Below, piece after piece: positions 8,597 through 46,730 of a stretch of 64,000 bases of DNA; position 1 is the stretch's first letter, and every line of letters begins with the position of its first letter. Source of the stretch: an uncultured Chloroflexia bacterium (GTDB lineage Bacteria > Chloroflexota > Limnocylindria > Limnocylindrales > CSP1-4); assembly GCA_963841545.1 (NCBI GenBank), contig CAWJDE010000007.1, positions 27,764-91,763 on the forward strand, read 5' to 3'. The position numbers were made by a program, and so were the translations under genes. A model generated the notes under the pieces. It was not told where the DNA came from. It did not search any database and saw only the letters and a list, made by a program, of their open reading frames with translations.

Positions 8597-9420
8597 TCAG
8601 CCCGGCGTGCCGCCAGGGTCGACGGGCGGCGCCGGTTCGGCGGGAACGAGGAGCCGGTCGAGCATCGCCGTCCACACCAGCCGGTCCTCGTTCGTGATCC
8701 CCAGTGCGCCGTACCCGCGCTGGCGGCCCACCCAGGCGATCCCCGGCTCCCCCATCGCGAACCCCGCCGTCGCGAACGCGTCCGCCATCGTCAGCGTCGG
8801 CCCCACGACGGTCAGGCTTCGCAGGCCCGAGGCGGGATGGCCGGTGCGCGGATTGCGGATATGCTCGCCGCGCTCGTAGGTGGCAGAGGTGGCGACCGCG
8901 AGCCCCGACACCTCGAGCACGGCGGCCAGCGCGTTCGCGCGGCCGGGATGCCGGATCCCGATCCGCCAGCGCCGGCCCGGCTCGGGCTCGCCCACGGCGA
9001 CGAGGTCACCGCCGGCACCGATCTGGACGTTGCGGGCGCCGGCCAGCCGGAGCGATGCCAGCGCCTCGTCGATCGACCATCCCTTGACCACGCCGCTCGG
9101 ATCGAACCGCCCATCGGCCCGATGAGCGCCGGCATCGAAGAAGCCGTCCGTCCGCGCTCGCAGCGACGCCGCCAGCGACACGATGGCGCGCACGTCGCCG
9201 CTCGCATCCTCCGGCCGCAGCAAGCCGTCCGCCACGCGGCTCATCTCGCTCTCGGGCCGGTACAGGCTGAACCGGCGGTCGACATCGTGGAACCAGGCGA
9301 TCGCGGCCTCGAGCGCCGCCGGCGGGACCAACGGCGAGCGTACGTCGATCGACACCACGGTCCCCATCACCGGCTCCGCCCGGACCTGCCGGGCGGAGCC
9401 GGTGCGAGGCGCCGACATGC
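8597..9420 (-). CDS. ApbE-family FAD:protein FMN transferase
   Basis: The ATG lies inside the 846-aa track ORF, and the translation (MSAPRTGSARQVRAEPVMGTVVSIDV...DAFATAGFAMG) looks ApbE-like. Its ATG overlaps the stop of the upstream FMN-binding gene (ATGnnnTGA arrangement). Confidence 0.75.
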
Positions 9421-9422
9421 CC

Positions 9423-9983
9423 TCAGCTGCCGGCGCTGTCGAGGGCCGCCTGCAGCGATCGGGCGTAGCCGAGGCTGGTGTAGGTGGCCCCGGACACCCC
9501 GTCGATGTTCGCGCTCTGGACCTGGAGCGCCTGCCCGCGCAGGAGCGGCTCGACGAACCTGGAGATCTGGCCCGACCGGCCGCCGCTGGGCAGCTCGAGC
9601 GCGGCGATGTCGACGAGCTTGCTGCCGTCGAGCGTGACCTCGACCTGGACGGGCCCCCACCGCGTGTCGACCACCGGACCGTCGACGGTGTGCTGGCCCG
9701 TGGCACCATTCGAGCCGCCGCCGGCAGGGGTCGCCGCTGGGACGCCCGGCCCGCCGTTCGAGCCGCCGGTGCCGCCGTTCTGCGACGTCCCGCCGTTCGA
9801 CGTCCCGCCGTTGGAGGCTCCGCCGTTCGACGCCCCGCCGTTCGGGATTCCGCCCGCGCCGCCGGCGCTGACCGGGTTCGAGCCGCGGCCCACCGTGACC
9901 GTATCGGTGGGGACCTGGAAGTTGAGCAGGAGCGCCAGCCCGAGGGCGGTGAGCCCGAGGGCGAAGGCGCCGCGCTTGGGCAT
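9423..9983 (-). CDS. FMN-binding domain protein, secreted or membrane-anchored
   Basis: The start MPKRGAFALGLTALGLALL gives a signal/TM segment. A Gly/Asn/Ser-rich linker follows, then an FMN_bind-like C-terminus (GATYTSLGYARSLQAALD; the Thr/Ser is the expected flavinylation site). Confidence 0.7.
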   Translation of the reverse strand: MPKRGAFALGLTALGLALLLNFQVPTDTVTVGRGSNPVSAGGAGGIPNGGASNGGASNGGTSNGGTSQNGGTGGSNGGPGVPAATPAGGGSNGATGQHTVDGPVVDTRWGPVQVEVTLDGSKLVDIAALELPSGGRSGQISRFVEPLLRGQALQVQSANIDGVSGATYTSLGYARSLQAALDSAGS

Positions 9984-10176
9984 CCGGACGCTCTCCTGGT
10001 TTCGTCGATGGCTGCGCGTCGGGCACGGGAAGGCCCGCCGTGACGCCAGCATCGCCGCCGGCCCTGAGAGGCGAATGAGATTCGGGCGGGGGCGGGATGC
10101 CGACGCAGTGCCGGCCTCGGAAGTGCGCCGCCGCGGCGCTCCTTCCTGCCCCAGCATGGTTCAGCGGTCGAAGGCC

Positions 10177-11610
10177 TCAGTAGCTGAAGCGCTCGGCGTG
10201 CACCCGGTCGCCCGGCACGCCCAGCTCGCGGAGCGCGTGCTCCACCGTCTGCATGAACCCGACCGGACCGCACACGTACACGTCGTGGTCCGCGATCGAC
10301 GGCACCAGGCGCGAGATCGCCCGGTGGTCGAAGGGGGGTGCCGGCGGCTGGTCCGACCCGTGGTTGTGGCGGTGGCCGACGACGTACTCCACCCGGGCGC
10401 TGCGGTGCGCCGCCAGCGCCTCGAGCTCGTGGAGGAAGGTCAGGTCCGACGGATGGCTGACCCGGTAGACGAGGTTGAGCTCGCCCGGGCGGGCAGGCAA
10501 CGATTCGAGCAGCGCCCGGAGCGGGGCGATCCCGATCCCACCGGCGATCAGCGTGATCCCGCGTCGCGTCCGCCGGGCACCGGTCATGACGCCGTACGGA
10601 CCCTCGAGCAGGACGGGGGTCCCGACCGCCGTGTCGGCGATCCGCGCGCTGTCGTCGCCCATGGCCTTGACGGTGAACCGCAGCCAGCGCCCGTTGGGCG
10701 CCGACGAGATCGAATACGGGTGGGCGCGCCACCAGCGATCGCGCGCCAGGAAGCGGACGACGAAGAACTGGCCGGACCGGACGGCCAGCCGATCGAGGTC
10801 GCGGCCACCGACGTAGACCGATACCACGCCGGGTGCCTCGGGGACGATCGCCGTGACCCGGGGGCGGTGGCGAATGGTGGTCAGCAGTGGCTGGCCGAAC
10901 CGGAACACGAGCACCAGGGCGATGGTCGCGAGATAGAGCGAGATCCAGTAGATGGCCGCGAGCTGGTCGTGGATGAAGTCGGCGCCCACGAACAGCTGGT
11001 GCAGGAACGCGAGCGCGATGGCCAGGTACGCGTAGAGGTGGAGGTAGAACCAGGTCTCGTACGACAACCGCCGGCGCGCGGCGCGCAGCGAGGTCAACCC
11101 GACCAGCACGAACAGGCCGAAGCCGGCCGTCGCCCACAGCACGTACGGGAACGTCGTCAGCAGCGAGATCGCCTCACCGATGACGCTCTGGCCATCCCCC
11201 TGTGCGTAGCCGATGGTCGTGAGCAGCCCGTGCGCCCCGATCAGCCAGATCGTGGCGAACCCGAGCCAGCGGTGCGCCCAGGCGAGCCGATCCGTCCCGA
11301 ATGCCTCGTCGAGCCAGGGGCTGCGGCCCATCAGGACGAGCTGGATGAGGGCGAGATAGGTCCCCAGCAGGGCCGTCAGCTGGCCGGCGGCGGTGAACGC
11401 CCCACCGGGCGTCGAGAGCTGGTCCGGGCCACCGTGGCGGACCCACATGAGGACGATGAACCCGCCGTTGGCGATCAGCAGCGTCGTGACGTCGCGCGGT
11501 CGGACGCCCCACAGCCGTGGCAGCGGCACGCGGACGGGCCGGGCGGCATGGGCAGAGGCCATGGCCGGATGGTCGGGCGAACGCATGAGAGCCCGATGAG
11601 ACGGGCGCAC
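10177..11610 (-). CDS. ferric reductase-like transmembrane oxidoreductase (FRE/NOX family: 6-TM heme domain + FAD + NAD(P)H binding)
   Basis: Multiple TM helices with conserved His residues, an FAD motif HPYSISS, and NAD-binding motifs GGIGIAP and CGP at the C-terminus. Confidence 0.75.
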   Translation of the reverse strand: MRPSHRALMRSPDHPAMASAHAARPVRVPLPRLWGVRPRDVTTLLIANGGFIVLMWVRHGGPDQLSTPGGAFTAAGQLTALLGTYLALIQLVLMGRSPWLDEAFGTDRLAWAHRWLGFATIWLIGAHGLLTTIGYAQGDGQSVIGEAISLLTTFPYVLWATAGFGLFVLVGLTSLRAARRRLSYETWFYLHLYAYLAIALAFLHQLFVGADFIHDQLAAIYWISLYLATIALVLVFRFGQPLLTTIRHRPRVTAIVPEAPGVVSVYVGGRDLDRLAVRSGQFFVVRFLARDRWWRAHPYSISSAPNGRWLRFTVKAMGDDSARIADTAVGTPVLLEGPYGVMTGARRTRRGITLIAGGIGIAPLRALLESLPARPGELNLVYRVSHPSDLTFLHELEALAAHRSARVEYVVGHRHNHGSDQPPAPPFDHRAISRLVPSIADHDVYVCGPVGFMQTVEHALRELGVPGDRVHAERFSY

Positions 11611-13927: not shown

Positions 13928-14035
13928 TCACCGGGACGTCGAGCAACAGGTGCCACAGCCCGCCGGCACCGCGAGCGCGACCAGGACGGCGATGGGCAGC
14001 AGACCCCTGCGGCGGGCCGGTGTCCGGGGCGTCAT
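13928..14035 (-). CDS. possible small (35 aa) signal/TM peptide with a C-terminal CGTCC motif
   Basis: A strong SD (CAGGAGTAGCC) sits 6 nt before the ATG. The peptide is MTPRTPARRRGLLPIAVLVALAVPAGCGTCCSTSR, about 200 nt downstream of the cytochrome c gene. Confidence 0.3.
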   Translation of the reverse strand: MTPRTPARRRGLLPIAVLVALAVPAGCGTCCSTSR

Positions 14036-14240
14036 GGCTACTCCTGGGCGCGGGTCCGGGCCGTCGCCGGGACAGGGGTGGTCGCAGCCGACCGCGGCTG
14101 CGCGACGACGCGGCGAATCGAACGCGAGGCGCGTGAGAGGGCGATGAGAGGGGCGCGGGGACGATCGCCGTGGCTGCATCGTCAGGTGCCGGGGACGCAT
14201 CGAGGAGCCGGGCCCCGATCGCCGGGGCCGGGCTCAGCCG

Positions 14241-15035
14241 TCAGGAGCCGGCAGTCGAGGCCGCCGGCGCGAGGGTCGGGGTCGCCGAGGCGCCGCCCGA
14301 GCCGGGCGACGCGCCGTCCGAGCCGGGCGTCGCCGACGCACCGCTCGAGCCCGGCGACGGCGACGCGCCGACCGCGTGGCACAGGACGCACGTCTCCTCG
14401 CCGCGCAGCGCGTGGTCGATCGGCAGGGCACCCACGTCGGCCGACTGGTGACAGCTGCGGCAGTTGAGCGTGCCCATGTCCGGGTGCGGGTTGACCGGCG
14501 GCGGCGACGGGTTCGGCTTGTGGCATAGCCAGCACTCGTCCTGGTTGCGTCCGACCATGCTCGTCGGCAGGTGGGCGACGCTCCCGTGGCAGTCCAGGCA
14601 CGGCTTGTTGAGCTCGGCGTGCGCCTGCGTGATCGCCGGTCCGTCCGGCGCCTCCTTGTGGCAGTTCAGGCACTCCGACTCCGCGATCCCGGCGTGTCCG
14701 GGCGCCGTGCGGCCGAGCTTCTCGTCCGTGTGGCAGGTGAGGCACGACGTCCAGCCCGCCAGCGGGTGACCGAGCGCCGGGATCGGCTTGAGCCCCGCCT
14801 CGCCGCCCTCGTAGTGGCACAGCAGGCAGCTGTTCGAGGTCGGGATGTGCGCGATCCCCATGAGCATCGTGTCGGGGGACGCCGATGCGGACGGCGTATC
14901 GCCGGTGGTGTCCGAGCTGGCGTGGAGCGGCAGCAGGTCGAGCCAGTTGGCCACCATCGTTCCGGCCAGCAGGGCCACCACGACCAGGTTGAGCACGATC
15001 AGCAGCCGCAGCGTGCGGTCGACTCGGGTCTTCAT
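14241..15035 (-). CDS. membrane-anchored heptaheme c-type cytochrome
   Basis: An N-terminal TM helix (LRLLIVLNLVVVALLAG) and seven CxxCH motifs (CLLCH, CLTCH, CLNCH, CLDCH, CWLCH, CRSCH, CVLCH) within about 200 aa, then a Ser/Gly/Ala/Pro-rich tail. Its ATG overlaps the stop of the protease gene (ATGA). Confidence 0.8.
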   Translation of the reverse strand: MKTRVDRTLRLLIVLNLVVVALLAGTMVANWLDLLPLHASSDTTGDTPSASASPDTMLMGIAHIPTSNSCLLCHYEGGEAGLKPIPALGHPLAGWTSCLTCHTDEKLGRTAPGHAGIAESECLNCHKEAPDGPAITQAHAELNKPCLDCHGSVAHLPTSMVGRNQDECWLCHKPNPSPPPVNPHPDMGTLNCRSCHQSADVGALPIDHALRGEETCVLCHAVGASPSPGSSGASATPGSDGASPGSGGASATPTLAPAASTAGS

Positions 15036-15565
15036 GCGACCGCCTCCGCGTGACTCGGGAAGGGACGGCTGACAGCGACCGCGACGGACGCGGCGCGCTC
15101 ATCGAGCGCGCGCAGCGCTCGGCAGGCGGCGTCGGTCGCGGCGGGGATCGCGGCCTCGACCTCCGGCGTGAGCGTCGTACCCGCGCCGAGATCGGCTGCC
15201 TGCACGCCGACCATCGCGAGCGCATCGGGCAGCCGGCCGGCGAGCCTCGCCAGCGCGACCAGGCTCTCGACCCCACCCCCCGCCCGGCGCGCGATCCGGT
15301 CACCGGGGATCATCGTGACCGTGCCCGGGGCCAGGCCGATGTCGACGGCATCGATCAGCAGCAGCGCGCGCGCGTCGACGAGGTGCTCGAGCACGGCCGG
15401 GCCGGTCGTCCCGCCGTCGACCAGCCGGACGTCGGCCGGGAGCGTGGCGGGATCGGTCGCCGCACGCGATCGAAGCTCGGCGATCAGGCGCGACCCAAGG
15501 CCGTCGTCCCGGTGCAGGACGCTGCCGACGCCGATCGCGACCACGGGACCGCGGCTGCGGCTCAT
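15032..15565 (-). CDS. hydrogenase maturation endopeptidase (HyaD/HupD family)
   Basis: The internal start MSRSRGPVVAIGVGSVLHRDDGLGSRL carries the GxGNxxxxDDGxG-type motif. It overlaps the cytochrome b stop by ATGA. Confidence 0.8.
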   Translation of the reverse strand: MSRSRGPVVAIGVGSVLHRDDGLGSRLIAELRSRAATDPATLPADVRLVDGGTTGPAVLEHLVDARALLLIDAVDIGLAPGTVTMIPGDRIARRAGGGVESLVALARLAGRLPDALAMVGVQAADLGAGTTLTPEVEAAIPAATDAACRALRALDERAASVAVAVSRPFPSHAEAVA

Positions 15566-16371
15566 TCGGCCCGCTCCAGCATCTCCGGGCCGCCGTCGCG
15601 CGACTCGACCAGCTCCTCGCGGGTCGGGAACTTGAAGCCGCTCACGATGCTCGAGATCAGCCCGTTCTTCTCCAGGTGGTCGACCAGGATGCAGCTGTAG
15701 ACGTGGAACAGCGCGATCGCCAGGATCGCCCACATGGCGAGGTGATGGATCAGGCGCAGCTGCTGCGCCCCGACGAGCTCGCGCAGCCAGCCGAACAGCG
15801 TGTGCCCGGGCTCGGCACCCATCAGGCCGTCCAGCGCGAACCCGGTGACCGTCTCGACCAGGAGCAGCGCGAACAGCGCGAGGTAGGCGGTGGCGGCGAG
15901 CTGGTTGTGCCCCAGCACCTTGGGGATCTCGCGGCGGACGAACCCGTAGAAGCCCGCCTGTCGGAACAGCTCCGTGGCCTGGAACCGGGTGGTCGGGATG
16001 AACGCCGACCAGCGCGCGAAGCGGTTGCCGGCCAGCAGCCAGTACGTTCGCACGATGCCCGAGAGCAGGAACACGAGCGCGGTCACGATGTGGATCAGCC
16101 GGACGGTCGACATCACGTTGCCGCCGGCGGGGATCAGGAACGGGTCGGCGATGTAGCCGCCGGTGAGGCTGAGCGTGACGATGCAAGCGGCGGTGACCCA
16201 GTGCGTGATCCGGACGGGCGCCTGCCACACGTAGAGCCGGACCCGCTCGTCGGGTCGCTCGATGGCGTGCGGCCCAGCAGCCTCGGGGGCGCCGTCGCCG
16301 GCCACCGCTTCCGGCACGCCGGGCCGGGTGGCGTCGACGAGCTCCGGGCGGACGTCAGCGGCTGCCGTCAT
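15562..16371 (-). CDS. Ni/Fe-hydrogenase b-type cytochrome subunit (HyaC/HupC-like)
   Basis: The start MTAAADV overlaps the large-subunit stop (ATGA). It has 4 TM helices with conserved His residues (ITHWV, HIVTAL, HHLAMW) and matches the CybH family. Confidence 0.85.
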   Translation of the reverse strand: MTAAADVRPELVDATRPGVPEAVAGDGAPEAAGPHAIERPDERVRLYVWQAPVRITHWVTAACIVTLSLTGGYIADPFLIPAGGNVMSTVRLIHIVTALVFLLSGIVRTYWLLAGNRFARWSAFIPTTRFQATELFRQAGFYGFVRREIPKVLGHNQLAATAYLALFALLLVETVTGFALDGLMGAEPGHTLFGWLRELVGAQQLRLIHHLAMWAILAIALFHVYSCILVDHLEKNGLISSIVSGFKFPTREELVESRDGGPEMLERAE

Positions 16372-18131
16372 GGGCGTGCCTCCAGGGCGTGGACGCGGAC
16401 GTCGACCCGGCCGGGCGCGGCCGTGCCGTAGGCGTGCGCCGCGCACGCGAGGCAGGGGTTCATGCTGTGGACCACGCGCAGCAGCTCGATCGGCTGCGCG
16501 GCATCGGTGACGGGCGTCTTCAGGAGCGCCGTCTCGAGCGGCCCGCGCACCCCCAGCGAGTCACGCGGCGACGCGTTCCACGTGCTCGCGTCGACCACCT
16601 GGTATCGGTCGATGACCCCGTCGCGGATGGCGATCCAGTGTCCGACGGCGCCGCGGGCGCCCTCGCCCAGGGACCACCCCTCGGCCTCTGCCGGCCACGT
16701 CGCAGGATCCCATGAGCCGATGTCGGCAACCGCGAGGTCGCCGGTGGACAGGTGCTGCCGGAGCTCCTGCAACCATCCGATCGCCCGGGTCGAGATGACC
16801 TGCGCCTCCGCCGCGCGCGCGATGGTCCGGCCGAGCGTGCTCGGCATGGCCTCGGGTCCCAGCGACAGCTGCCGGAGCAGCTCGGCCAGCGCGCGGCCGA
16901 TGTCCTGCTGGCCGTCGGCCCAGGCGACCATCACCCGCGCCAGGGGTCCGGTCTCCATCGGTTCGCCGTCATAGCGAGGCGCCTTGAGCCAGCTGTACCG
17001 CTCGGCGTTCTCGAGCGTGGTCAGCGGCAGCTCGAGGTCGAACGACGGGGTCGTCTGCCCGTCGGCCGGCCCCCGCGGTGCACCGCGCCGATCGTCGTCG
17101 TACCACGCGTGGGCCGAGGATTCCATGATGCCGTCAGGCTCGACCTGCTGCACCTGGAGGGCGCCGCTGGCGAGCCGGCCGCGGGATAGGAACCGTACCG
17201 GGTCGCCACCGTCGTCGAGCGGGTACTCTCCGGCGGCCAGGTACCCCGCGGCGCCGCCGCCGATGGCCGTCCATTCCGGGTACGACACGGTGAGCAGCCG
17301 CACGTCGGGAACGAACACCTCGCGCACGAACGTCTGGGCCTCGACCAGCAGGTCGTTGATCATGGTCAGACCGGCCTCGCCCAGCGGATCGGGCGAGTTG
17401 TGCTCGGGGACCTCGGGGTGGTCGCGATTGAGGCGGACGGCCGGTCCACCCCAGGGCGGCGCCAGGGCCATGCCGCCGACGAGATAGGTCTGCGGGTGGG
17501 GGTCCTTGCCGCCCAGGATGGCTTGGACGCGCATCAGTCGCGCCTGCCAGTCGAGCGCGTCGACGTAGTGCGCGTACAGGAGCAGGTTCTGCTCCGGTGA
17601 CAGGCGATAGGCGGCGTGCCCCCACCAGCCGGCCCCCATTCCGGTCCCGGGCGTGCCGAGGTTGGCCGCCAGCCGGGCCTGAATGTCGCCGAGGTACTGG
17701 CTGCTCGACTGCGGCCAGGCTCCGATCGCCCTGGCCAGCGACGACGTCGCAGCCGGGTCCGCGTCGAGCGCCGAGCGGGCATCGGCCCAGTCGGGCAGCT
17801 GGGCCTGGTAGAACGAGAGCACGTGGTCGCGCACGAGCTGGGTCGCCGCCAGCAGGTTGCGGACGAGCCGCGCGTTGGTGGGGACGGTGATCCCGATCGC
17901 TTGCTCGACGGCGCGGACCGAGGCCAGGGCGTGGACCCCGGAGCAGGTCCCGCAGATGCGCTCGGCGATCAGCCAGGCATCGCGCGGGTCGCGACCGCGC
18001 AGCACGGACTCGATCCCCCGGAACATCGTGCCCGAGCTCCACGCGTCCTCGACAACACCCCCGGCCACGTCTGCCTCGATGCGCAGCTGGCCGCCGACGC
18101 GCGACACCGGATCGACGACCAGGCGGCTCAC
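16368..18131 (-). CDS. [NiFe]-hydrogenase large subunit (group 1, membrane-bound uptake type)
   Basis: N-terminal Ni-binding motif RICGTCSGVH and C-terminal NPCLACAAH. It is 587 aa and sits between the small-subunit and cytochrome b genes. Confidence 0.95.
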   Translation of the reverse strand: MSRLVVDPVSRVGGQLRIEADVAGGVVEDAWSSGTMFRGIESVLRGRDPRDAWLIAERICGTCSGVHALASVRAVEQAIGITVPTNARLVRNLLAATQLVRDHVLSFYQAQLPDWADARSALDADPAATSSLARAIGAWPQSSSQYLGDIQARLAANLGTPGTGMGAGWWGHAAYRLSPEQNLLLYAHYVDALDWQARLMRVQAILGGKDPHPQTYLVGGMALAPPWGGPAVRLNRDHPEVPEHNSPDPLGEAGLTMINDLLVEAQTFVREVFVPDVRLLTVSYPEWTAIGGGAAGYLAAGEYPLDDGGDPVRFLSRGRLASGALQVQQVEPDGIMESSAHAWYDDDRRGAPRGPADGQTTPSFDLELPLTTLENAERYSWLKAPRYDGEPMETGPLARVMVAWADGQQDIGRALAELLRQLSLGPEAMPSTLGRTIARAAEAQVISTRAIGWLQELRQHLSTGDLAVADIGSWDPATWPAEAEGWSLGEGARGAVGHWIAIRDGVIDRYQVVDASTWNASPRDSLGVRGPLETALLKTPVTDAAQPIELLRVVHSMNPCLACAAHAYGTAAPGRVDVRVHALEARP

Positions 18132-19588
18132 GCTCGATCCTCCGCGGGTCCGCGATCCGCCTCGGGCGACGACTGGGGTCCGGTGGACGGCTCGGGCTCG
18201 ATCGGGGCCTCTCGCTCGCCCCGTGCCTCGGGCTCTGCCGAGAGGCCGGGCCCAACCGGCGGCTCGGGCTTGGCGGGAACCTCAGGCTCGGCCGATACCA
18301 CGCGCTCGGCGAGCGCCTCGGGCTCGACGTTCGGGATGGTCGCGCTTGCCGGCTCGGCGTTCGGGTTGGTCGCGCCTGCCGGTTCGACGTTCGGGATGGT
18401 CGCGCCTGCCGGTTCGGCGGGCAGGTCAGTCGTCACGGCCGCCGCGGTGGGCGCCGCGACCGGCTCCAACGGTGCCTTCGCCTTCGCTCGGCTCGTGCGC
18501 CCGGCACGCCGTCGACCCTGCACGGCGCGATACTTCTCGCGAGCCGTCATCCCGGCACCATGGAGGACCGCCGCCGCGCCCACCCCGCCGACGAGGAGCG
18601 TTCCCGCGGTGTCGGCGGTCAGCGAGGGCATGAACGGAACGGGCGATCCTAGGCGCCGGTACGCCGGCAGCATCGAGTCCCAGAAGCGCGGCGTCACGCA
18701 GCCCACGCAGCCCGCACCGGCCCGGACGTTCCAGCTCAGCGCGTCGCCGTAGCGGGCGGTCGGGCAGTTCGCCATCGTCTCGGGCCCCTTGCAGCCGAGC
18801 TTGTACAGGCACCAGCCCTTCTGGGCACCCGCGTCCCCCCACGCCGTCGCGAACTCGCCGAACTCGAAGTGCGGCCGGCGCTCGCACTGGTTGTGGATCA
18901 GGTTGCCGTAGGCGAACAGCGGCCGCCCGCCGAGGTCCGCCGGCGGCAGGTTGCCGGCCGCCAGGTAGTGGACGATGGTCGCCGACAGGTTGACGACGTT
19001 CATCGGACAGCCGGGCAGCGTCACCAGCCGGGCATCGCCGATCGCCTGCCGAACGCCGGTGGCCGAGGTCGGCCCGCCCGTCGCACCCGGCACACCGCCA
19101 TCGAAGGCACACGACCCGAGCGCGATCGTCGCCAGCGCGCCGTCGCACACCTCGCGGGCCACATCGGCCAGGGGTCGCCCGCCGACCAGGCAATAGGCGC
19201 CGCCGGCGGCGGTCGGAATCGCGCCCTCGACGATCGCGATGTACCCGTTCGGATAGCGCTCCATGGCGGTCGTGCGCGCGACATCCACCGGTGCACCCGC
19301 AACCGCCAGCAGCGACTGGTGATAGTCGACCGACAGGACGTCGAGGAGCAGCGTCGAGACCGATGGGTCCGCGCTGCGCAGCATCGCCTCGGTGTTCCCC
19401 CCGCAGGTCTGCCCGCGGAGCCAGATCACCGGGATGCGGGGCGCCGTCTCGACGGCCCTGGCAATCCGCGGCGCATACGCGGCCGGCAGCGCGAGCGCGG
19501 CAGCCATCGCCGCGGAGAACCGGAGGAACGATCGACGGGTCATGCCACGCTGGACCAGCGCGGCGTACAGCCCGTCGTCTCCCATCAC
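18128..19588 (-). CDS. [NiFe]-hydrogenase small subunit with a Tat signal and a repetitive C-terminal extension
   Basis: A twin-arginine motif (TRRSFLRF), FeS-cluster Cys ligands (GQTCGGN, GSCA, CPTARYG, CVGCVTP), and about 110 extra C-terminal residues containing 3 x AEPAGATIPNVEP. It overlaps the large-subunit start by 4 nt. Confidence 0.9.
   Translation of the reverse strand: MMGDDGLYAALVQRGMTRRSFLRFSAAMAAALALPAAYAPRIARAVETAPRIPVIWLRGQTCGGNTEAMLRSADPSVSTLLLDVLSVDYHQSLLAVAGAPVDVARTTAMERYPNGYIAIVEGAIPTAAGGAYCLVGGRPLADVAREVCDGALATIALGSCAFDGGVPGATGGPTSATGVRQAIGDARLVTLPGCPMNVVNLSATIVHYLAAGNLPPADLGGRPLFAYGNLIHNQCERRPHFEFGEFATAWGDAGAQKGWCLYKLGCKGPETMANCPTARYGDALSWNVRAGAGCVGCVTPRFWDSMLPAYRRLGSPVPFMPSLTADTAGTLLVGGVGAAAVLHGAGMTAREKYRAVQGRRRAGRTSRAKAKAPLEPVAAPTAAAVTTDLPAEPAGATIPNVEPAGATNPNAEPASATIPNVEPEALAERVVSAEPEVPAKPEPPVGPGLSAEPEARGEREAPIEPEPSTGPQSSPEADRGPAEDRA
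18320..18420. repeat. in-frame tandem repeat of about 39 nt, 3 copies, inside the small-subunit 3' end
   Basis: The unit ggctcgacgttcgggatggtcgcgc(c/t)tgccggttcg recurs three times and encodes the PNVEPAGAT repeats. Confidence 0.7.
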
Positions 19589-19967
19589 GTCTCACTCGTT
19601 CCTTCGTCGCGTCGGGGGAACGCTCTCCCGGCAATGGCCGCGACAGGACCTGGGGACGCCGGTAACATCATCCACCCCCCGATGCGGCAGGCCACGAGCC
19701 ACAGGTCGCCGTTGGACATGGCGAAGGGCACCGGCAGAGGGCCCGGATGGCGGCCGGGTGGCCTGCCGCTCGGCAGGTCCGGGGCGGTCCAGGCGGCTCG
19801 TGGCGGGAACGTCCGCACCACGGCGGGGACACCGAGGGGGCGTACCGGCGGGACGGGCGGGACCGGCGGGACCGCTGGCCCGCCGCTTGCGCCGAGCGAT
19901 CGGTGGCCGGCCCTGTCCGGCGCCCTGCCTGCCCTTCCCCGCCGCCTGCCGGCCCGCGTCCGGCGGG

Positions 19968-22613
19968 CTACCTCAGGATGGCGAAGGCGTCGAGATCCAC
20001 CCGCGGATGCGTGCCCGTGCCGACGACGACCAGGCGCACGGTCCGCCTGACCGCCGTCGACCAGGTGCGCTGCCAGACCACGCTCCTCGTGAGCGCCGAC
20101 GACGCGTGCAGGTTGATCGTCGCGACGCGCCTCCCGTTCACGTAGATCTTCACCTTGCCCCGTCTCGGGGCGCGGGTCGTCACCAGCGCGATGGAGCGCG
20201 CGGTCAAGGTCAGCGTCGCGGACGCGCCGCCAGCCCTCGCATGCCTGACCGACCCGCTCGAGTACCCGCTCGCGGAGCTTGTGCGCCAGGTGCCGACGTA
20301 GTGGATCGCGGGACGCGTCTGCTGACGCAGGTCCGGCCGCACCACGGGACCGAGCGTCCAGGCGGAGGTGTTGCCCGCCAGATCGACGGCGCGGACCTCG
20401 AAGCGGACGCTCCCCGAGGAGCCGACGTTGAGCGCGAGCGACGGCGTCGCGACCCCGAACGCGATCAGGGTCCAGGTGTCCCCGCCGTCGACCGATCGGG
20501 CGACCTCGTACCTCGCGATCCCGGCACCCCCGGTGTCGGCGCCCGACCAGGCAAGCCGGATCGGCAGCGAGGTCCCCGACAGCCGGGCTCCGGTCCGCAG
20601 GGTCGCCTTCGGGGCCGACGCCGTGGGGGCGGTCCGATCGATCGCGACAGCGCTCGTCGTCGCCGTCGAAGCCGGGCCCACGTTGCCCGATCCGTCCTGG
20701 ACCGAGAGCGGGGCGAGCGACAGGGCCACGGTCCCCTGCGAGCAGCCGGTGACGTTGATCGCGTAGCTGGTCGACGCGCCGGTGGGTGCGCCGATCACGC
20801 ATCCAGTGGCGGAACCCGACGTGCCGAGGTCCGAGGCGGTCAGGCCGGTGACGGATTCGCTGAAATGGATCGAGAACCGGACGGTGGCACCGCCGTAGGG
20901 CGTGGCGGTGGTCGGCGCGAAGGTTTCGACCGTGGGTGGAGTGAGGTCGGGTGGCGCGCTGCCGCTCGGCGATGGGGATGGGGATGGGGACGGGGACGGG
21001 GTGGGGGTCGGCGACGCGGTCGGCGTGGGGGTTGGCGTGGACGTCGGGGAGGCGGTCGGCGTGGGGGTCGGGGCTGCCGAGGCAGTCGGGGTCGGTGACA
21101 GCGTCGGTGAGGCAGTGGGCGTCGGCGTCGGTGAGGCAGTGGGCGTCGGCGTCGGCTCGGGCATCGAGGCGGCGGCGTTGACGGCAGCGCCCGCGTCGAC
21201 GATCCCGGCGCCGCAGCCCAGCGACTGGCAGCCGCTGCCGGAGCCGTCGCTGGCGAAGGCGCGCACGTTGTCGACGAGCAACGACCGGACGGTGGCAGGC
21301 GACAGGCCGGGGGCGATCGCGAACAGGAGCGCCGCGACCCCGGCCACGTGGGGCGCGGCCATGCTGGTCCCCGATCCCCAGCCATAGGTCTCGGTCGACG
21401 GGCTCGTCGTCCCGTTGTTCCAGGTCGAGAGGATCGAGACGCCCGGGGCCGCGATCGTCACGCCGGCGCCGTAGTTGCTGAACGACGCGCGCTTGCCGGC
21501 ATTGTCGGTCGCCGCGACCGAGACCACGCCGTCGCAGCCGGCCGGCGAGTAGCCCGCCTCGTCAGCATTGCTGTTGCCGGCAGCCACCACGACCACGGCG
21601 CCGCGGCTGGTCGCATCGTCGATCGCCGACTGCATCGTGCTCCCGCAGCTGCCCGGGCCGCCCAGCGACAGGTTGAGCACGCGTGCGGGGTGCGCGTTGG
21701 CGGGCACCCCGGGCACGGTGCCACCGGCCGCCCACCGGACGGCCGCGGCGATGTCGGAGTCGTAGCCGCCGCACTTGCCGAGGACGCGGACCGGCAGGAT
21801 CGAGGTCGACCACGCGATCCCGGCCACGCCGGCGCCGTTGTTGCCGGCGGCGCCGATCGTGCCGGCCACGTGCGTCCCGTGCCATGAGGAGCTCTCGGCC
21901 GGACAGCCCTGGAAGTAGCCACTGGCCGATTCCGCCGTGGTCACCCAGTCGCCGGGGTCCGCGGGGTTCGCGTCGCGCCCGTCGCCGTCGTTGGCGATCG
22001 CCGGATCGCTGATGAAGTCGTAGCCGGGCAGCACCCGCGCGGCAAGCTCGGAGTGGGTCGTGATCCCGGTGTCGATGACGGCGACGGTCACCGACGCGCT
22101 GCCGGTGGTGGTGTCCCAGGCAGCAGGCGCGTCGATCCCGTAGCTGCCGAACAGGTCCTGCTGGTAGCCAGCGTAGTAGGTGTCGTTCGGGGTGAGATCG
22201 GCGGACATCCGCAGGTCGGGGGCGACCTCGGCCACCCCGCCGACACCCGCGATGGCGTGCAGGTCAGCCAGCGCCAGCGCGCGAGTCCGCGCGACCGGCA
22301 GCCAGTACGCCGTCGCATCGTCGCCCAGCTCGGCTGCCTTCCGGAGACCCGGGAGGGCAGCCGCCAGACGTCCCGTTCGCTCGCTCCGCGCCACCCCGCC
22401 GCTGCCCTGGCGCCACTGGACCACGACCCGCTCGAGCGGGACGTTCCCCAGGTTCCGCGCATCGACCCGGCCCGGCCCCACGGCAGCCACATCGCCAACC
22501 GGCATGGGTGCGCCGGCGACCGCGAGGGCAAGCACCAGCAGGGCGGCACCGAGGACGCGTGAGCTCAGGGACAAGGGCGTGGGACTCCGCTGCGCGGCGA
22601 CGGCCGCCGTCAT
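19968..22613 (-). CDS. secreted S8-family (subtilisin-like) serine peptidase with a Pro/Thr-rich linker and C-terminal beta-rich domains
   Basis: A signal peptide, the catalytic motifs [12 protein letters not shown] and [11 protein letters not shown], a PTPTAS linker, and a C-terminal domain of about 350 aa. Confidence 0.85.
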
Positions 22614-42961: not shown

Positions 42962-44542
42962 CTACATCAGCTTGTAGCGCGGCCCTTCGCCGCCCTCGGG
43001 CGGCACCCAGCTGATGACCCCGGTCGGGCACTTGACCGTGCACGTCATGCAGTGGAGGCAGTTCGAGGGCGAGAGCACGATCTGCGAACCGTTCCAGCGA
43101 TACACGTCGCCCGGGCAGAAGTGCGTGCAGGCGTTGTCGTAATCGGCCTCGCAGGTCGCGCACGCCGCCGGGTCGGTGATCGTGATGTGCGGCGGCTCGT
43201 CCTCGCGGTGGAGCGCGCCCGTGAGCGACACGAACGTCGCGCCGTCCATCCGGCCCGGATCGGGCCGGTTGAGCCTGGCTCCCTTCTTCGTCGCCGGGCC
43301 GTCACGGTGCATGCCCAGCCGGCCGGGGATGAACGACTGGACCAGCGACAGTGGCGTGCCGGCGAACAGCCCGTACCGGAACACCTGTCGGTAGTTGCGC
43401 GCATGGCGCAGCTCGGGCAGCACGCCCCGGGTCTCGAGCCGGTCGCGGTAGCCGGTGAGCGAACCCACGCTCCCGTCGGCGCCCAGCGACTCGACCGCCG
43501 TGTCGGCCGCCGCCATGCCGGACAGGATCGCGTAGTGGATGCCCTTGATCTTCTCCATGTTCACGAGCCCGGCGCCGTCACCGACCAGCATCGCGCCCGG
43601 CGCCGTGAGCTCGGGCATCGCGTACCAGCCGCCTTCCGGGATCGTCTTGGCACCGGTCGCGACGGTGACGCCGCCCTTGAGGAGCCGGCTGATGTAGGGA
43701 TGCGCCCGGAACGTCTCGAACTCTCGCTGCGGATCGAGGTCGCCGTACTTCCAGTCGAGCCCGAGGATCAGGCCGACCGCGACCGTCTGCTCACCCAGCG
43801 AGTACAGGAAGCCGCCGCCGAAGACGCTGGGCCGGTTCGGGTAGCCAAGCGTGTGCATCACCCGGTTGTTGCCGAACGGGCTCGCCTCGGGGAACTGGAC
43901 GACGGCCTTGATGCCCAGCGAGTGGACCTGTGGGTTGGCGCCGCCCCCGAAGCGCTGGGCGAGCTGGGTCGAGATGACCCCGTGCGAGCCGTCGGCCACG
44001 ATCGTGATCGGCGCCCGGATCTCCTCGGCCGGGATGTGGTTGCCCTTCGGCGTCCCCCCGGCGGCGAGGCCCACCTCGGCCAGCCGGACGCCGCGCACGA
44101 CGCCGTCCTCGACGATCAGGTCGCGGGCCGAGAACCCGTGATAGATCTCGGCGCCGGCCTTGGTCGCCTGCTCGGCCAGGAACGCGACCAGGCGCGTGAT
44201 GGCGATCACGTAGTCGCCCGTGTGGTGCATCCGGGCGGGCACGATGCGAGCCGGGATCCGGTGCGCGGACGTCGCGCGCAGGAACAGCATGTCGTCGCGC
44301 TCGACCGGCACGAGGTGCTGGGTGAACGGATGGTGGATCCCCTTCCAGTCCGGGACCAGCTCGTCGAGGCAGCCCGCCTCGAAGGCGGCCCCCGAGAGCG
44401 CGTGGTTGCCCGGTGCCGGGGCCTTGTCGATGACCACCACGGACAGCTCGCGGCCGGCCTGGGCCGCCTGCTGCCTGACCCGGATGGCCGCGGCGAGGCC
44501 GGCGGGACCCGCGCCGACGATCAGGACGTCGATGCGCTCCAC
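42962..44542 (-). CDS. electron-transfer flavoprotein:quinone oxidoreductase (ETF-QO), with a C-terminal 4Fe-4S ferredoxin-like domain
   Basis: A GTG start 1 nt after the stop of the upstream etf gene, an FAD GxGxxG motif (IVGAGPAGLAAA), and a C-terminal Cys cluster (CATCEADYDNACTHFCPGD...CLHCMTCTVKCP). Confidence 0.85.
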   Translation of the reverse strand: MERIDVLIVGAGPAGLAAAIRVRQQAAQAGRELSVVVIDKAPAPGNHALSGAAFEAGCLDELVPDWKGIHHPFTQHLVPVERDDMLFLRATSAHRIPARIVPARMHHTGDYVIAITRLVAFLAEQATKAGAEIYHGFSARDLIVEDGVVRGVRLAEVGLAAGGTPKGNHIPAEEIRAPITIVADGSHGVISTQLAQRFGGGANPQVHSLGIKAVVQFPEASPFGNNRVMHTLGYPNRPSVFGGGFLYSLGEQTVAVGLILGLDWKYGDLDPQREFETFRAHPYISRLLKGGVTVATGAKTIPEGGWYAMPELTAPGAMLVGDGAGLVNMEKIKGIHYAILSGMAAADTAVESLGADGSVGSLTGYRDRLETRGVLPELRHARNYRQVFRYGLFAGTPLSLVQSFIPGRLGMHRDGPATKKGARLNRPDPGRMDGATFVSLTGALHREDEPPHITITDPAACATCEADYDNACTHFCPGDVYRWNGSQIVLSPSNCLHCMTCTVKCPTGVISWVPPEGGEGPRYKLM

Positions 44543-44543
44543 G

Positions 44544-46435
44544 TCATGCCTCCTGCGTCGCGCGGACGAGCTCGGGCACGACCGTCTCGAGGTCGCCCAC
44601 GACGCCGAAGTCCGCGTAGTTGAAGATCCGCGCCCGCGGGTCCTTGTTGATCGCCACCACCGTGTCCGACATCTGCATCCCGGACACGTGCTGGACGGCA
44701 CCCGAGATGCCGACCGCGATGTACAGCTTGGGCGCGACCGTCTGGCCGGTCTGGCCCACCTGGTAGTCGTGGGTCGTGTAGCCGTCCTCGACCGCGTGCC
44801 GGGACGCGGCGACCTTGGCCTCGTCGCCGAGCACGTGCTCGAGCCCGTCGGCGAGCGGCTGCAGGAACCGCTCGAACTCCACCCTGGAGCGGATGCCATG
44901 GCCGCCCGCGACGATGATCTTGGCGTCCCGGATGCTGACCTTGGATACGAACGACTCGACCGGCGTGATCTCGACGCCCAGGTCGTGGGCCTCGAGCTCC
45001 GGCACGACCCGGACGACGTCGCCCGTGCGCGCGTCGTCGCGTCGCGGAACCTTGAACACGCCGGGCCGGACGGTCGCCATCTGGGTCGGCAAATCCTTGG
45101 TCATGATCGTGGCCATGATGTTGCCGCCGAGAGCCGGACGGGTCTGCTTGAGGATCCCGGTCAGCTCCTGGCCGCCCTTGGCATGGTCGCCGATCTCGAG
45201 CTTGGTGCAGTCGGCGGTCAGCCCCGAATCGCAGGCGTAGGCGACGCGCGGTGCGAGCTCGCGGCCCATCGGCGTCGCCCCGAACAGCATCACCTGCGGC
45301 CGTCGCTCGCGGACGAGATCGGCGATCGCCTTCTTCCACGGGATGGGCGAGAACTCCGCCAGCATCGGGTGCTCGAGCGAGTACACGACGTCGGCCCCGT
45401 GGGCGATCAGCTCGGCGGGCAGCTCGCCCCCCTCGGCGCCCGTCAGGACCACACCCACCCGCTCACCCAGGAACGCGGCCAGCTCGCGCGTCTTGCCCAG
45501 CAGCTCGAGCGAGACCGACTTCAGCCCGTCGCCCTCGCGCTCGGCCAGCACCCAGAGCTCGCCGCGAAAGGTCGGCTCGCGGCCGTCGAGCACGTAGGCG
45601 CCCTCCTCGTGGGCCGCGGGCCCGCCGCCGGCGAGGCGGTACTTGGCCTGGACGCGGCGCAGGAGGTCGGCGACGTCGGGGATCATCTCGCACGTCTTCG
45701 CGCGGTCCTCGGCCGGCGAGAAGATCCGGTAGACCTGCGTCCGGCTGCCCTTGATGCCGACCCGGTCGGGCGCCGCGCCCACGTCGGCGGCCGACCACGT
45801 CCGGATCTCCGCGTCGCGCGCCGCGCGCGCCGCGTGGAACCCGCGGTACAGGGTGTCGGTGCACGAGGTGACCGTCACCAGGACGGGGAACCGTCGCGGG
45901 ACGATGTCCTCGGTGCCCTGGGCGCCGATGCGGCGGAAGGTCAGCTCGGGATCGGTCCGCACGCCCTGCGCGTACGCGATCTGCTCGATGCCCAGGTCCT
46001 CGGCGATCTGCGGGGGCACCTGTGCGGTGTCGCCGTCGACCGACTGCATGCCGGTCACGATCAGGTAGTCGTGGCTGCCGTCGAACAGCTCGGTCTCGAT
46101 GCGCCGGATCGCCATGGCCAGCGAGTACGCCGTCGCGACCGTATCCGCGCCGCCCATGGTCCGGTCGGTCAGCAGGATCGCCTCACCTGGCGCCCGCGAC
46201 AGGCAGTCCACCAGCACATCGCGGGCCTGCGGGGGGCCCATGGTCAGGTAGATCGTCTTCGCGTCCGGATCACCGGCGGTGATCCGGCGAGCAAAGCTCA
46301 GCGCGTGCAGATCGAGCGGGTTGAGGACGCTCTCGAGCATGGCGCGACGGAGCGTGCCCTTGTCGCGGTCCCAGGCATCCTCGGGGATGTTCGAGACGTC
46401 CGGGACCTGCTTGACGAGAACGATGCAGTGCATAT
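44544..46435 (-). CDS. fused electron-transfer flavoprotein beta-alpha (EtfB-EtfA in one polypeptide)
   Basis: It starts at [12 protein letters not shown], typical of an EtfB N-terminus, and continues without a stop into an EtfA-like C-terminal half with FAD-binding motifs ([19 protein letters not shown]). The fused protein is about 630 aa. Confidence 0.85.
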
Positions 46436-46730
46436 GGCACCCGGTGCAGGGGGCGGCCCGCGTGACGGGCCTGTCAACAGCGCGCGGCGTTGGTCGCGAT
46501 CGTGCGGTCGCCCCGACTATCGTCCCCGGTCGGGTCATCCTGGCATAGGGAGGACGGACGGTGATCCGGCCTGCCGATGGCCCCTCGAACCCTGCCGAGC
46601 GACCCGTGTCCACGGGACCCTCGGCGCCGGGCCACCGGGACCGTGACCCTCGCCGCCGTGGCGGCAGGGGTGGCCGGCTCGGCGGGCCGCGGGCCGGCGG
46701 CGCTCCCGGCGCCCCAGCTGCCACGGGCCG

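Follow-up and report, generated by a model that had tools for sequence, protein, structure and literature searches.

A class-wide [NiFe]-hydrogenase operon of Limnocylindria encodes a dedicated heptaheme cytochrome c with a predicted membrane tether

Introduction

Oxidation of H2 is a major energy source of soil bacteria, and the Ellin6529 lineage, or Limnocylindria, is abundant in soil and uncultured. To our knowledge, the electron acceptor of a respiratory hydrogenase is either a cytochrome b in the membrane or a soluble multiheme cytochrome. Here, we analyze an operon in which a membrane-bound [NiFe] hydrogenase and its cytochrome b are encoded together with a heptaheme cytochrome c. It lies on a 64,000-nucleotide stretch of DNA (hereafter, the window) from contig CAWJDE010000007.1 of an uncultured Chloroflexia bacterium. 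Within the full text open to searching, which leaves most subscription journals outside, we found no prior description in any lineage of a hydrogenase operon that carries both a cytochrome b and a dedicated multiheme cytochrome c.

The closest described enzymes are the membrane-bound hydrogenases of groups 1d and 1e and their allies, represented by E. coli Hyd-1 (HyaABCD), the membrane-bound hydrogenase (MBH) of Cupriavidus (HoxKGZ), and the Allochromatium enzyme. These combine a small subunit that is exported by the twin-arginine translocation (TAT) pathway and anchored at its C terminus with a large subunit and a cytochrome b, and their genes run in the order small subunit, large subunit, cytochrome b, protease. 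In the crystal of E. coli Hyd-1, two small/large-subunit dimers are present per cytochrome b.

A different arrangement is found in Desulfovibrio, where the multiheme cytochrome Tp1-c3 is the main electron partner of the periplasmic hydrogenases (PMC4215793); the native hydrogenase of Ignicoccus also reduces multiheme cytochromes (PMC4429474). Tp1-c3 is soluble, holds four hemes, serves hydrogenases that lack a cytochrome b, and feeds Qrc, Tmc, and Hmc. Limnocylindria (Ellin6529, also termed "Edaphomicrobia" or "Eulabeiota") are thought to be monoderm and mostly aerobic, and multiheme cytochromes occur often across the wider Chloroflexi supergroup (bioRxiv 10.1101/2021.08.23.457424). A group 1l [NiFe] hydrogenase has been reported for this lineage (bioRxiv 10.1101/2020.08.06.239558, 10.1101/2021.08.23.457424), with five small transmembrane genes between the subunit genes, a Rieske-type partner, and an affinity to group 1h (bioRxiv 10.1101/2020.08.06.239558).

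Results

Organization of the operon

The window is 70-77% G+C throughout, and genes were called from a listing of open reading frames (ORFs) together with a frame plot of G+C content at third codon positions (GC3). Five consecutive genes occupy the minus strand from 19588 to 14241:

18128..19588, minus strand: [NiFe]-hydrogenase small subunit, 486 aa (TIGR00391, Oxidored_q6, NiFe_hyd_SSU_C)
16368..18131, minus strand: [NiFe]-hydrogenase large subunit, 587 aa (PF00374, NiFeSe_Hases, E = 1e-164)
15562..16371, minus strand: hydrogenase b-type cytochrome membrane subunit, 269 aa from its ATG (TIGR02125, PF01292)
15032..15565, minus strand: HyaD/HybD-type maturation endopeptidase, 177 aa (PF01750, HycI; TIGR00072)
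14241..15035, minus strand: heptaheme cytochrome c, membrane-tethered by prediction, 264 aa (seven CxxCH motifs, Pfam Cytochrome_C7)

This content and order, and the tight coupling of the genes, are as a first-pass annotation of the sequence had proposed. Direct inspection revealed a 4-nt overlap at each of the four junctions: GTGA between the small- and large-subunit genes, and ATGA at the large subunit/cytochrome b, cytochrome b/protease, and protease/cytochrome c junctions. A GGAGG-like Shine-Dalgarno sequence lies 8-12 nt 5' of each overlapping start. Given the family assignments and the four overlaps, we regard the five genes as one translationally coupled unit. Genes for hyp functions or for a reductase or oxidase were not found within the 64-kb window.

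Conservation of the cytochrome c gene and its linkage to the hydrogenase

Database searches returned 484 relatives of the cytochrome c, of which the best 120 are 64-85% identical to it; the taxon-labelled members of these 120 are all Chloroflexota or Candidatus Limnocylindrales, mostly the latter. The first-pass annotation had framed the host as a high-GC Gram-positive-type genome, a view these labels contradict, and we rejected an actinobacterial origin since the nearest relatives belong to the Chloroflexota class Limnocylindria (Ellin6529). Because multiheme cytochromes are common in Chloroflexota, part of the surprise that the annotation had attached to finding one disappears as well. When each GTDB species was represented by a single genome, a scan found the cytochrome c in 89 of these representatives, virtually all of them labelled Chloroflexota, Chloroflexia, or Limnocylindrales; two were short contigs binned elsewhere.

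We surveyed linkage by tblastn of the window proteins against 80 fetched loci. The large subunit found matches in 73 and cytochrome b in 74, and every such match lay directly upstream of the cytochrome c gene with the order unchanged. Where hydrogenase matches were missing, the contig broke off shortly upstream of the cytochrome gene, except in one locus (L082), which is weighed in the Discussion. The first-pass annotation had suggested looking for the five-gene order in related genomes and would have counted it against its proposal if homologues were never hydrogenase-linked elsewhere; the cytochrome is linked specifically to the hydrogenase in more than 70 species. The reverse test, starting from the large subunit, gave the same picture: all six clade metagenome contigs of sufficient reach carry the cytochrome c. 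An outgroup operon (L101), with 45% large-subunit identity, has the same four genes from small subunit to protease, cytochrome b included, and lacks the cytochrome c gene.

Identity of the cytochrome c falls as low as 54-60% among the hydrogenase-linked loci. In most loci scored, an A comes after its start codon, as expected for an ATGA overlap, and an AGGGGC or GGAGGC Shine-Dalgarno sequence comes before it; all but two of the scored loci encode seven CxxCH motifs. The genes flanking the operon vary widely and include those for aldehyde dehydrogenase, subtilase, PMT_2 glycosyltransferase, phosphoribosyltransferase, YceI, and transporters. Ten loci that hold both cytochrome genes (L038, L053, L064, L065, L067, L069, L070, L071, L076, and L083) showed no protease match between them, indicating that the cytochrome c tracks the structural genes and not the protease. 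The operons of these ten must either manage without the endopeptidase or rely on a gene for it at another site.

We estimated the ratio of nonsynonymous to synonymous substitution rates (dN/dS) by the Nei-Gojobori method against five orthologues. Values were 0.15-0.29 for cytochrome c, 0.17-0.21 for cytochrome b, 0.23-0.38 for the large subunit, and about 0.6 for the protease, and they are reliable only relative to one another, since extreme GC3 may distort dS. The first-pass annotation had named decay of the cytochrome c gene as something that would undo its proposal; the gene is intact, and the dN/dS ranking indicates that it is no pseudogene and is as constrained as a core subunit. The cytochrome c is hydrogenase-dedicated and has been kept across the class Limnocylindria.

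Architecture of the cytochrome c

The protein divides into a membrane helix, a linker, a heme domain, and a tail, three of which we delimited as follows:

14934..15011, minus strand: signal-anchor transmembrane helix, residues 9-34 (predicted local distance difference test score, pLDDT, >90; one conserved face)
14370..14858, minus strand: heme domain, residues 60-222, seven modules of ~24 residues of the form His-x7-13-CxxCH (spacing, conservation)
14244..14369, minus strand: variable Pro/Ser/Ala/Gly C-terminal tail of ~40 residues, encoded by 21/27-nt tandem repeats

Against PF14522 (Cytochrome_C7), the cytochrome c scores 40 bits (cutoff 24.8), and it also exceeds the cutoffs for Paired_CXXCH_1 (PF09699) and Cytochrom_c3_2 (PF14537). 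The CxxCH motifs start at residues 70, 98, 122, 146, 168, 192, and 216, giving spacings of 28, 24, 24, 22, 24, and 24 residues, or ~24 residues per heme. All 14 cysteines of the protein sit in these motifs, of which ~0.0006 would be expected by chance in a protein this long, and a second ORF with at least two CxxCH motifs was not found in the 64-kb window. Both the seven motifs and the N-terminal anchor described in the first-pass annotation stand, with the correction that the heme motifs span ~150 residues and not ~200.

Among 26 orthologues, exactly seven non-motif histidines are invariant (H63, H90, H114, H139, H155, H184, and H208), each located 7-13 residues ahead of a CxxCH. Seven motifs accompanied by seven additional invariant histidines suggest that the protein probably carries seven bis-His hemes, which, with that ligation, would probably be low-potential. 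By its profile matches and predicted ligation pattern, the cytochrome belongs to the class III, c3/c7-type multiheme cytochromes. Sequence and profile searches of the PDB returned motif-level matches only (E 0.008 or weaker), and none of the solved c3 sequences was matched significantly.

In pairing a group 1 enzyme with a cytochrome of the bis-His c3/c7 type outside the membrane, as predicted here, the locus resembles the Desulfovibrio periplasmic [NiFe] hydrogenase/Tp1-c3 system. It departs from Tp1-c3 in that the cytochrome would have seven hemes and a membrane tether, is encoded in the hydrogenase operon, and occurs alongside a cytochrome b.

The N-terminal helix (about residues 5-34) is preceded by K2, R4, R7, and R10, and we saw no conserved signal-peptidase site after it; the predicted topology is N-in/C-out, with an uncleaved signal anchor. 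Helix positions conserved in at least 90% of sequences (9, 10, 12, 13, 16, 19, 20, 23, 24, 27, 28, and 31) share one face, with a helical moment of 0.60 vs 0.20 for random placement, a value reached by none of 5,000 permutations. Such one-sided conservation suggests that this helix packs specifically against another, for which cytochrome b or the small-subunit anchor would be the simplest partner. Mean column conservation is 0.76 in the membrane helix, 0.47 in the linker, 0.84 in the heme domain, and 0.26 in the tail. Approximately 35 residues separate the helix from heme 1, including a variable linker of ~20 residues.

A single N-terminal helix followed by a multiheme c domain at the outer face of the membrane is also the plan of NapC, NrfH, and CymA. 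Unlike these, the present protein has seven hemes rather than four, a flexible linker before heme 1, and no partner reductase. A quinol dehydrogenase of the NapC/NrfH type serving a nearby nitrite reductase was an identity the first-pass annotation had wanted excluded; the TIGR03153 score of 22.2 bits against a cutoff of 134.2, and the lack of nitrite or nitrate reductase genes in the window, led us to reject it. We also rejected membership in the Tp1-c3 family, in the DmsE/MtrA decaheme family (TIGR03508, 27.5 vs cutoff 192) and in the ActA pentaheme family of ACIII (ActA-like 8k9e_A, E = 0.29-0.44).

The hydrogenase and its maturation protease

The small subunit matches TIGR00391 with 356 bits (cutoff 179.5) and bears the twin-arginine motif RRSFLRF, for which Pfam TAT_signal gives 22.1 bits (cutoff 22.7). 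It contains three iron-sulfur (FeS) cluster regions, the medial and distal ligands of which line up with those of PDB 1h2a_S, and ends in a Gly/Ala-rich membrane helix followed by a basic stretch. The large subunit has the NiFe-binding motifs RICGTCSGVH and NPCLACAAH, the latter of which precedes the 21 C-terminal residues that would be cleaved off in maturation. Cytochrome b exceeds the TIGR02125 equivalog cutoff (137.4 bits vs 121.5) and is 65-88% identical among the orthologous loci; the protease scores 97.6 bits against TIGR00072 (cutoff 47.45).

To place the enzyme, we compared the large subunit with PDB chains by phmmer bit score. The best solved relatives were 3myr_B from Allochromatium (group 1e; 469 bits) and then E. 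coli Hyd-1 (1d; 457), followed by the Cupriavidus enzyme (1d; 407), group 1b (about 399), and group 1c (about 384); groups 1h and 2a reached at most 171. A search for large-subunit homologues returned the same clade only, without a named outgroup. On these matches, the enzyme is a membrane-bound, cytochrome-b-linked group 1 uptake [NiFe] hydrogenase.

Its likeness to Hyd-1, MBH, and the Allochromatium enzyme extends to the predicted TAT export and C-terminal anchor of the small subunit, the 400-470 bits between its large subunit and 3myr, 3uqy, and 3rgw, the TIGR02125 cytochrome b, and the order of the first four genes. Unlike those systems, the operon continues into a fifth, coupled heptaheme cytochrome c gene, with neither hyaE/F nor hyp genes nearby; the small subunit has C-G-G-N(D/E) in place of the proximal C-x-x-C, without extra cysteines, and a long Pro/Ala/Glu tail. 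The locus is best described as a classical membrane-bound hydrogenase to which a dedicated, membrane-tethered heptaheme cytochrome has been added.

The proximal motif, C62-N65 (19394-19405, minus strand), retains three of the four canonical cysteines, the fourth being replaced by Asn. Across 39 orthologous loci, this position is N in 26, E in 7, D in 5, S in 1, and Cys in none; the outgroup operon L101 reads C-A-G-D. The extra proximal cysteines are absent from the small subunit and from every orthologue scored. These residues imply an unusual proximal cluster, coordinated by three Cys plus Asn/Asp/Glu or of the [3Fe-4S] type, with possible effects on its potential and on behaviour toward O2. 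The six-cysteine [4Fe-3S] proximal cluster (C-T-C-C plus one Cys) is missing, which rules out a group 1d O2-tolerant identity.

Like the group 1l enzyme, the hydrogenase occurs in Limnocylindria and would serve the same general role in aerobic H2 uptake. Unlike group 1l, its subunit genes overlap by 4 nt, and a putative TAT signal and a cytochrome b are present. We ruled out a group 1l identity on the lack of intervening genes and on the weak matches to 1h/2a structures (E = 1e-29 to 1e-49); the 1h structure 5aa5 aligns with residues 471-566 of the large subunit only (E = 2e-29).

Two further features of the subunits were noted. The motif NPCLACAAH spans large-subunit residues 558-566 (16434-16460, minus strand), and the usual Asp of DPC is Ala, Asp, or Asn across the clade. 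The small-subunit tail (18128-18560, minus strand) is ~130 aa long, rich in Pro/Ala/Glu, and presumably cytoplasmic; it contains 3.5 copies of a 30-nt (10-aa) repeat at 18313-18416, and the tails of orthologues vary in length.

Octaheme and giant relatives of the cytochrome c

Searching 1.84 billion cluster representatives with a profile, we identified 660 relatives, 222 of them with E <=1e-10. The hydrogenase-linked cytochromes of Limnocylindria fall essentially in one 50% cluster, and the next relatives are of two kinds. The first comprises proteins of 250-310 residues with a helix, a Pro/Ser linker, heme modules, and an eighth CxxCH at the C terminus; some of these are labelled Limnocylindrales. 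The second comprises giant proteins of 2,000-3,600 residues with up to 31 copies of the module, among which P0241, P0246, and P0264 (2,700-3,600 residues) carry 24-31 tandem copies of the ~24-residue unit. An apparent 841-aa "fusion" (P0243) was traced to an out-of-frame gene call and discarded.

In all six long contigs examined (L084-L089), the octaheme paralogue is the last gene of a four-gene cluster, exemplified by this one:

L085 4775-8942: octaheme cluster, encoding a c7-like cytochrome (~200 aa), an FeS protein (~320 aa), an NrfD-family membrane protein (~500 aa), and the octaheme cytochrome

In each cluster, the octaheme gene begins where the NrfD gene ends or overlaps with that end. 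Among known proteins, the FeS protein is similar to DsrO, NrfC, and TtrB, and the membrane protein to DsrP; no cluster protein reaches an NCBIfam equivalog cutoff except for a marginal DsrO match (202, cutoff 200). The cluster thus apparently encodes an uncharacterised NrfD-type complex. Its succession of cytochrome c, DsrO/NrfC-like FeS protein, and DsrP-like NrfD protein, ended by the nearest paralogues of our cytochrome, recalls NrfBCD, DsrJOP, Qrc, and Hmc/Nhc/Ohc. Unlike in these modules, the membrane partner in the operon described here is the hydrogenase cytochrome b, and the paralogues have eight hemes.

As both the hydrogenase and the NrfD context provide a quinone-interacting membrane partner, the family looks like a tethered heme wire that would join quinone-interacting membrane modules to partners at the outer face. 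This defines a compact seven-heme module, at ~24 residues per heme, whose paralogues cap NrfD-type complexes and build giant multiheme proteins. Two of the six octaheme clusters lie near hydrogen-related genes, namely HypA (L084) and a HoxH-type group 3 hydrogenase (L085); close to that of L087 are ResB/CcsA-type genes for cytochrome c biogenesis.

Discussion

We lean toward the explanation that the cytochrome c is a dedicated electron-transfer partner, acquired by the Limnocylindria hydrogenase as an extra redox partner, that gives H2-derived electrons a second, extracytoplasmic route; on the genomic evidence assembled here we think it somewhat probable. By homology to characterised enzymes, H2 would be oxidized at the NiFe site of the heterodimer, which the TAT pathway would place outside the cytoplasmic membrane, and the electrons would cross the small subunit by way of its three FeS clusters. 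One route would then lead, as in those enzymes, through cytochrome b to menaquinone. For the other, the heme wire may be reduced by the distal cluster itself or through the outer heme of cytochrome b. If two dimers shared one cytochrome b, as in Hyd-1, a distal cluster would remain available to a second acceptor.

The conserved helix and flexible linker would hold the wire beside the complex at the outer face of the cytoplasmic membrane, implying a physical association with the helices of cytochrome b or the small subunit that we infer from helix conservation. The wire could relay electrons along that face, bypassing the quinone pool, to an extracytoplasmic acceptor; the direction of flow is likewise a prediction, and candidate acceptors are another tethered cytochrome, an NrfD-type complex, a periplasm-like reductase or oxidase, and an extracellular acceptor. 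The context of the paralogues makes such a branched or extracytoplasmic route more plausible. A stronger version seems to us unlikely: a hybrid hydrogenase that splits H2 electrons between cytochrome b/menaquinone and a heptaheme wire exchanging electrons with octaheme-NrfD wires or with extracellular acceptors or donors, possibly also as a strategy of O2 tolerance.

Several observations count against a second route. A complete cytochrome b route is already present, such that a second is not required for function, and no conserved acceptor gene was found beside the operon in the window or the fetched loci. The structure model of the cytochrome c has a moderate overall pLDDT of 72 and was built without hemes, and fold searches with it returned no match. 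The exceptional locus L082 (8004-8765) encodes a seven-CxxCH paralogue that, at 51% identity, is the most divergent and has no hydrogenase context; it sits among unrelated genes, and the ORFs upstream of it lack a Pfam match. The possible distortion of dS by GC3 belongs here too, as do the ends of the transcription unit, for which two candidate features are available:

19589..19967, minus strand: upstream non-coding gap of ~380 nt, presumed promoter region (ORF map, GC3 frame plot)
14205..14235, minus strand: GC-rich hairpin, possible operon end (12-bp stem in the minimum-free-energy fold)

The gap extends from an S8 subtilase gene (22613..19968) to the small-subunit start. Promoter and terminator scans found neither a sigma-70 consensus match, leaving the gap itself as the pointer to a promoter, nor a T-tailed terminator, and with neither signal detected, co-transcription is read from the gene overlaps only. 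The hairpin lies 6 nt past the cytochrome c stop codon and is followed by ~390 nt without a confident gene; it is no more stable than shuffled sequence (z = -0.77), which makes it weak evidence for an operon end.

Other roles for the cytochrome c can be envisaged. It might act as an electron reservoir for oxygen protection, whereby electrons stored on the hemes return to the hydrogenase to reduce NiFe-bound O2, or detoxify reactive oxygen at the membrane surface; it would thereby take the place of the proximal [4Fe-3S] cluster with six cysteines found in classical O2-tolerant hydrogenases. The small subunits of the 39 orthologues, with neither supernumerary cysteines nor a fourth proximal ligand, would fit this role, as would the aerobic-type metabolism encoded in the window (electron-transfer flavoprotein [ETF], ETF-quinone oxidoreductase [ETF-QO], acyl-CoA dehydrogenase, and aldehyde dehydrogenase), the description of Limnocylindria as at least facultative aerobes (bioRxiv 10.1101/2021.08.23.457424), and the proposal that Huc-type enzymes reduce bound O2 with electrons from neighbouring units (PMC10017518). 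However, the outgroup L101 has a C-x-x-D motif yet no cytochrome c, which uncouples the two traits, and the octaheme paralogues in hydrogenase-free NrfD clusters speak for a generic wire role. We therefore consider a reservoir improbable.

A quinol-linked cytochrome in the manner of CymA, NapC, or NrfH, taking electrons from menaquinol, alone or via cytochrome b, to a periplasm-like reductase and so making H2 one source among many, is less probable still. The shared plan of an N-terminal helix and a multiheme domain, sub-threshold matches to the NrfH and DmsE-type decaheme models, and the coupling of the family to quinone-interacting subunits in both contexts favor it. It is opposed by the NrfH score far below cutoff and the heme count, by a conserved candidate second histidine for every heme in the orthologue alignment, and by the lack of a reductase gene in the window or of one conserved in the loci; moreover, the variable, low-complexity linker between the helix and heme 1 favors a tethered wire over a quinol site at the membrane surface. 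The potentials of bis-His multiheme cytochromes usually lie below that of menaquinol, so electrons would have to travel uphill.

It is doubtful, to a slightly greater degree, that the wire and its Pro/Ser/Ala tail span the monoderm envelope to minerals, humics, or partner cells, in H2-driven extracellular electron transfer or in electron uptake for H2 production. Seven hemes would span at most roughly 6-7 nm, perhaps short of crossing the cell wall, and additional outer cytochromes are not linked to the operon. For this idea speak the compactness of the wire, its extended and variable tail, the giant multiheme proteins among its distant relatives with up to 31 module repeats, and the lack of outer-membrane biosynthesis genes in the lineage (bioRxiv 10.1101/2021.08.23.457424). 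A flavin cluster (ferric-reductase-like, FMN_bind, and ApbE genes) that lies 2.6 kb downstream would suit it as well, but such a cluster occurs in a minority of loci (15 of 80).

Least probable, in our view, is that the gene is a genomic hitch-hiker, a general electron carrier without a specific functional link to the hydrogenase, its position reflecting shared descent within a single class. The carriers are indeed confined to one class, such that their occurrences are not independent events, and one paralogue (L082) is located elsewhere. Yet the cytochrome keeps its position and overlapping start while the flanks vary, even at the lowest identities among linked loci; it stays in place where no protease match is found, and it is under selective constraint equal to that on cytochrome b.

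If the cytochrome c does provide a second route, an operon that hard-wires both exits and is conserved class-wide suggests a previously undescribed distribution of H2 electrons at a monoderm surface. The hybrid hydrogenase, were it true, would amount to quinone-independent, H2-powered extracytoplasmic electron transfer in a monoderm. Should the wire merely duplicate the cytochrome b route, the gain would be a modest one in annotation: a named partner for a "hypothetical" family.

Other genes of the window

Three further features of the window deserve mention. In the gap beyond the operon, a 35-codon ORF (13928-14035, minus strand) has an AGGAG Shine-Dalgarno sequence; its product would consist of a lipoprotein-like signal (LAVPAGC) with only nine residues after it (CGTCCSTSR), and it may be a chance ORF.

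The flavin cluster (8597-11610, minus strand) consists of three consecutive genes, whose products are a transmembrane protein similar to ferric reductases, with domains that bind FAD and NAD; a protein of the FMN_bind type; and a flavin transferase of the ApbE type. The cluster resembles a flavin-based extracytoplasmic electron-transfer module. The count of 15 loci given above refers to the ferric-reductase-like gene; the FMN_bind gene was found in 13 of the 80, and where present, both were always downstream of the cytochrome c gene.

Lastly, a 726-residue ORF (42962-46724, minus strand) that adjoins the ETF-QO gene contains two Pfam ETF stretches and an ETF_alpha FAD-binding domain, which suggests fused beta and alpha subunits of ETF. 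Genes for acyl-CoA dehydrogenase, thiolase, 3-hydroxyacyl-CoA dehydrogenase, and methylmalonyl-CoA mutase are found elsewhere in the window; taken with the ETF and ETF-QO genes, they point to aerobic respiration of fatty acids or organic acids.

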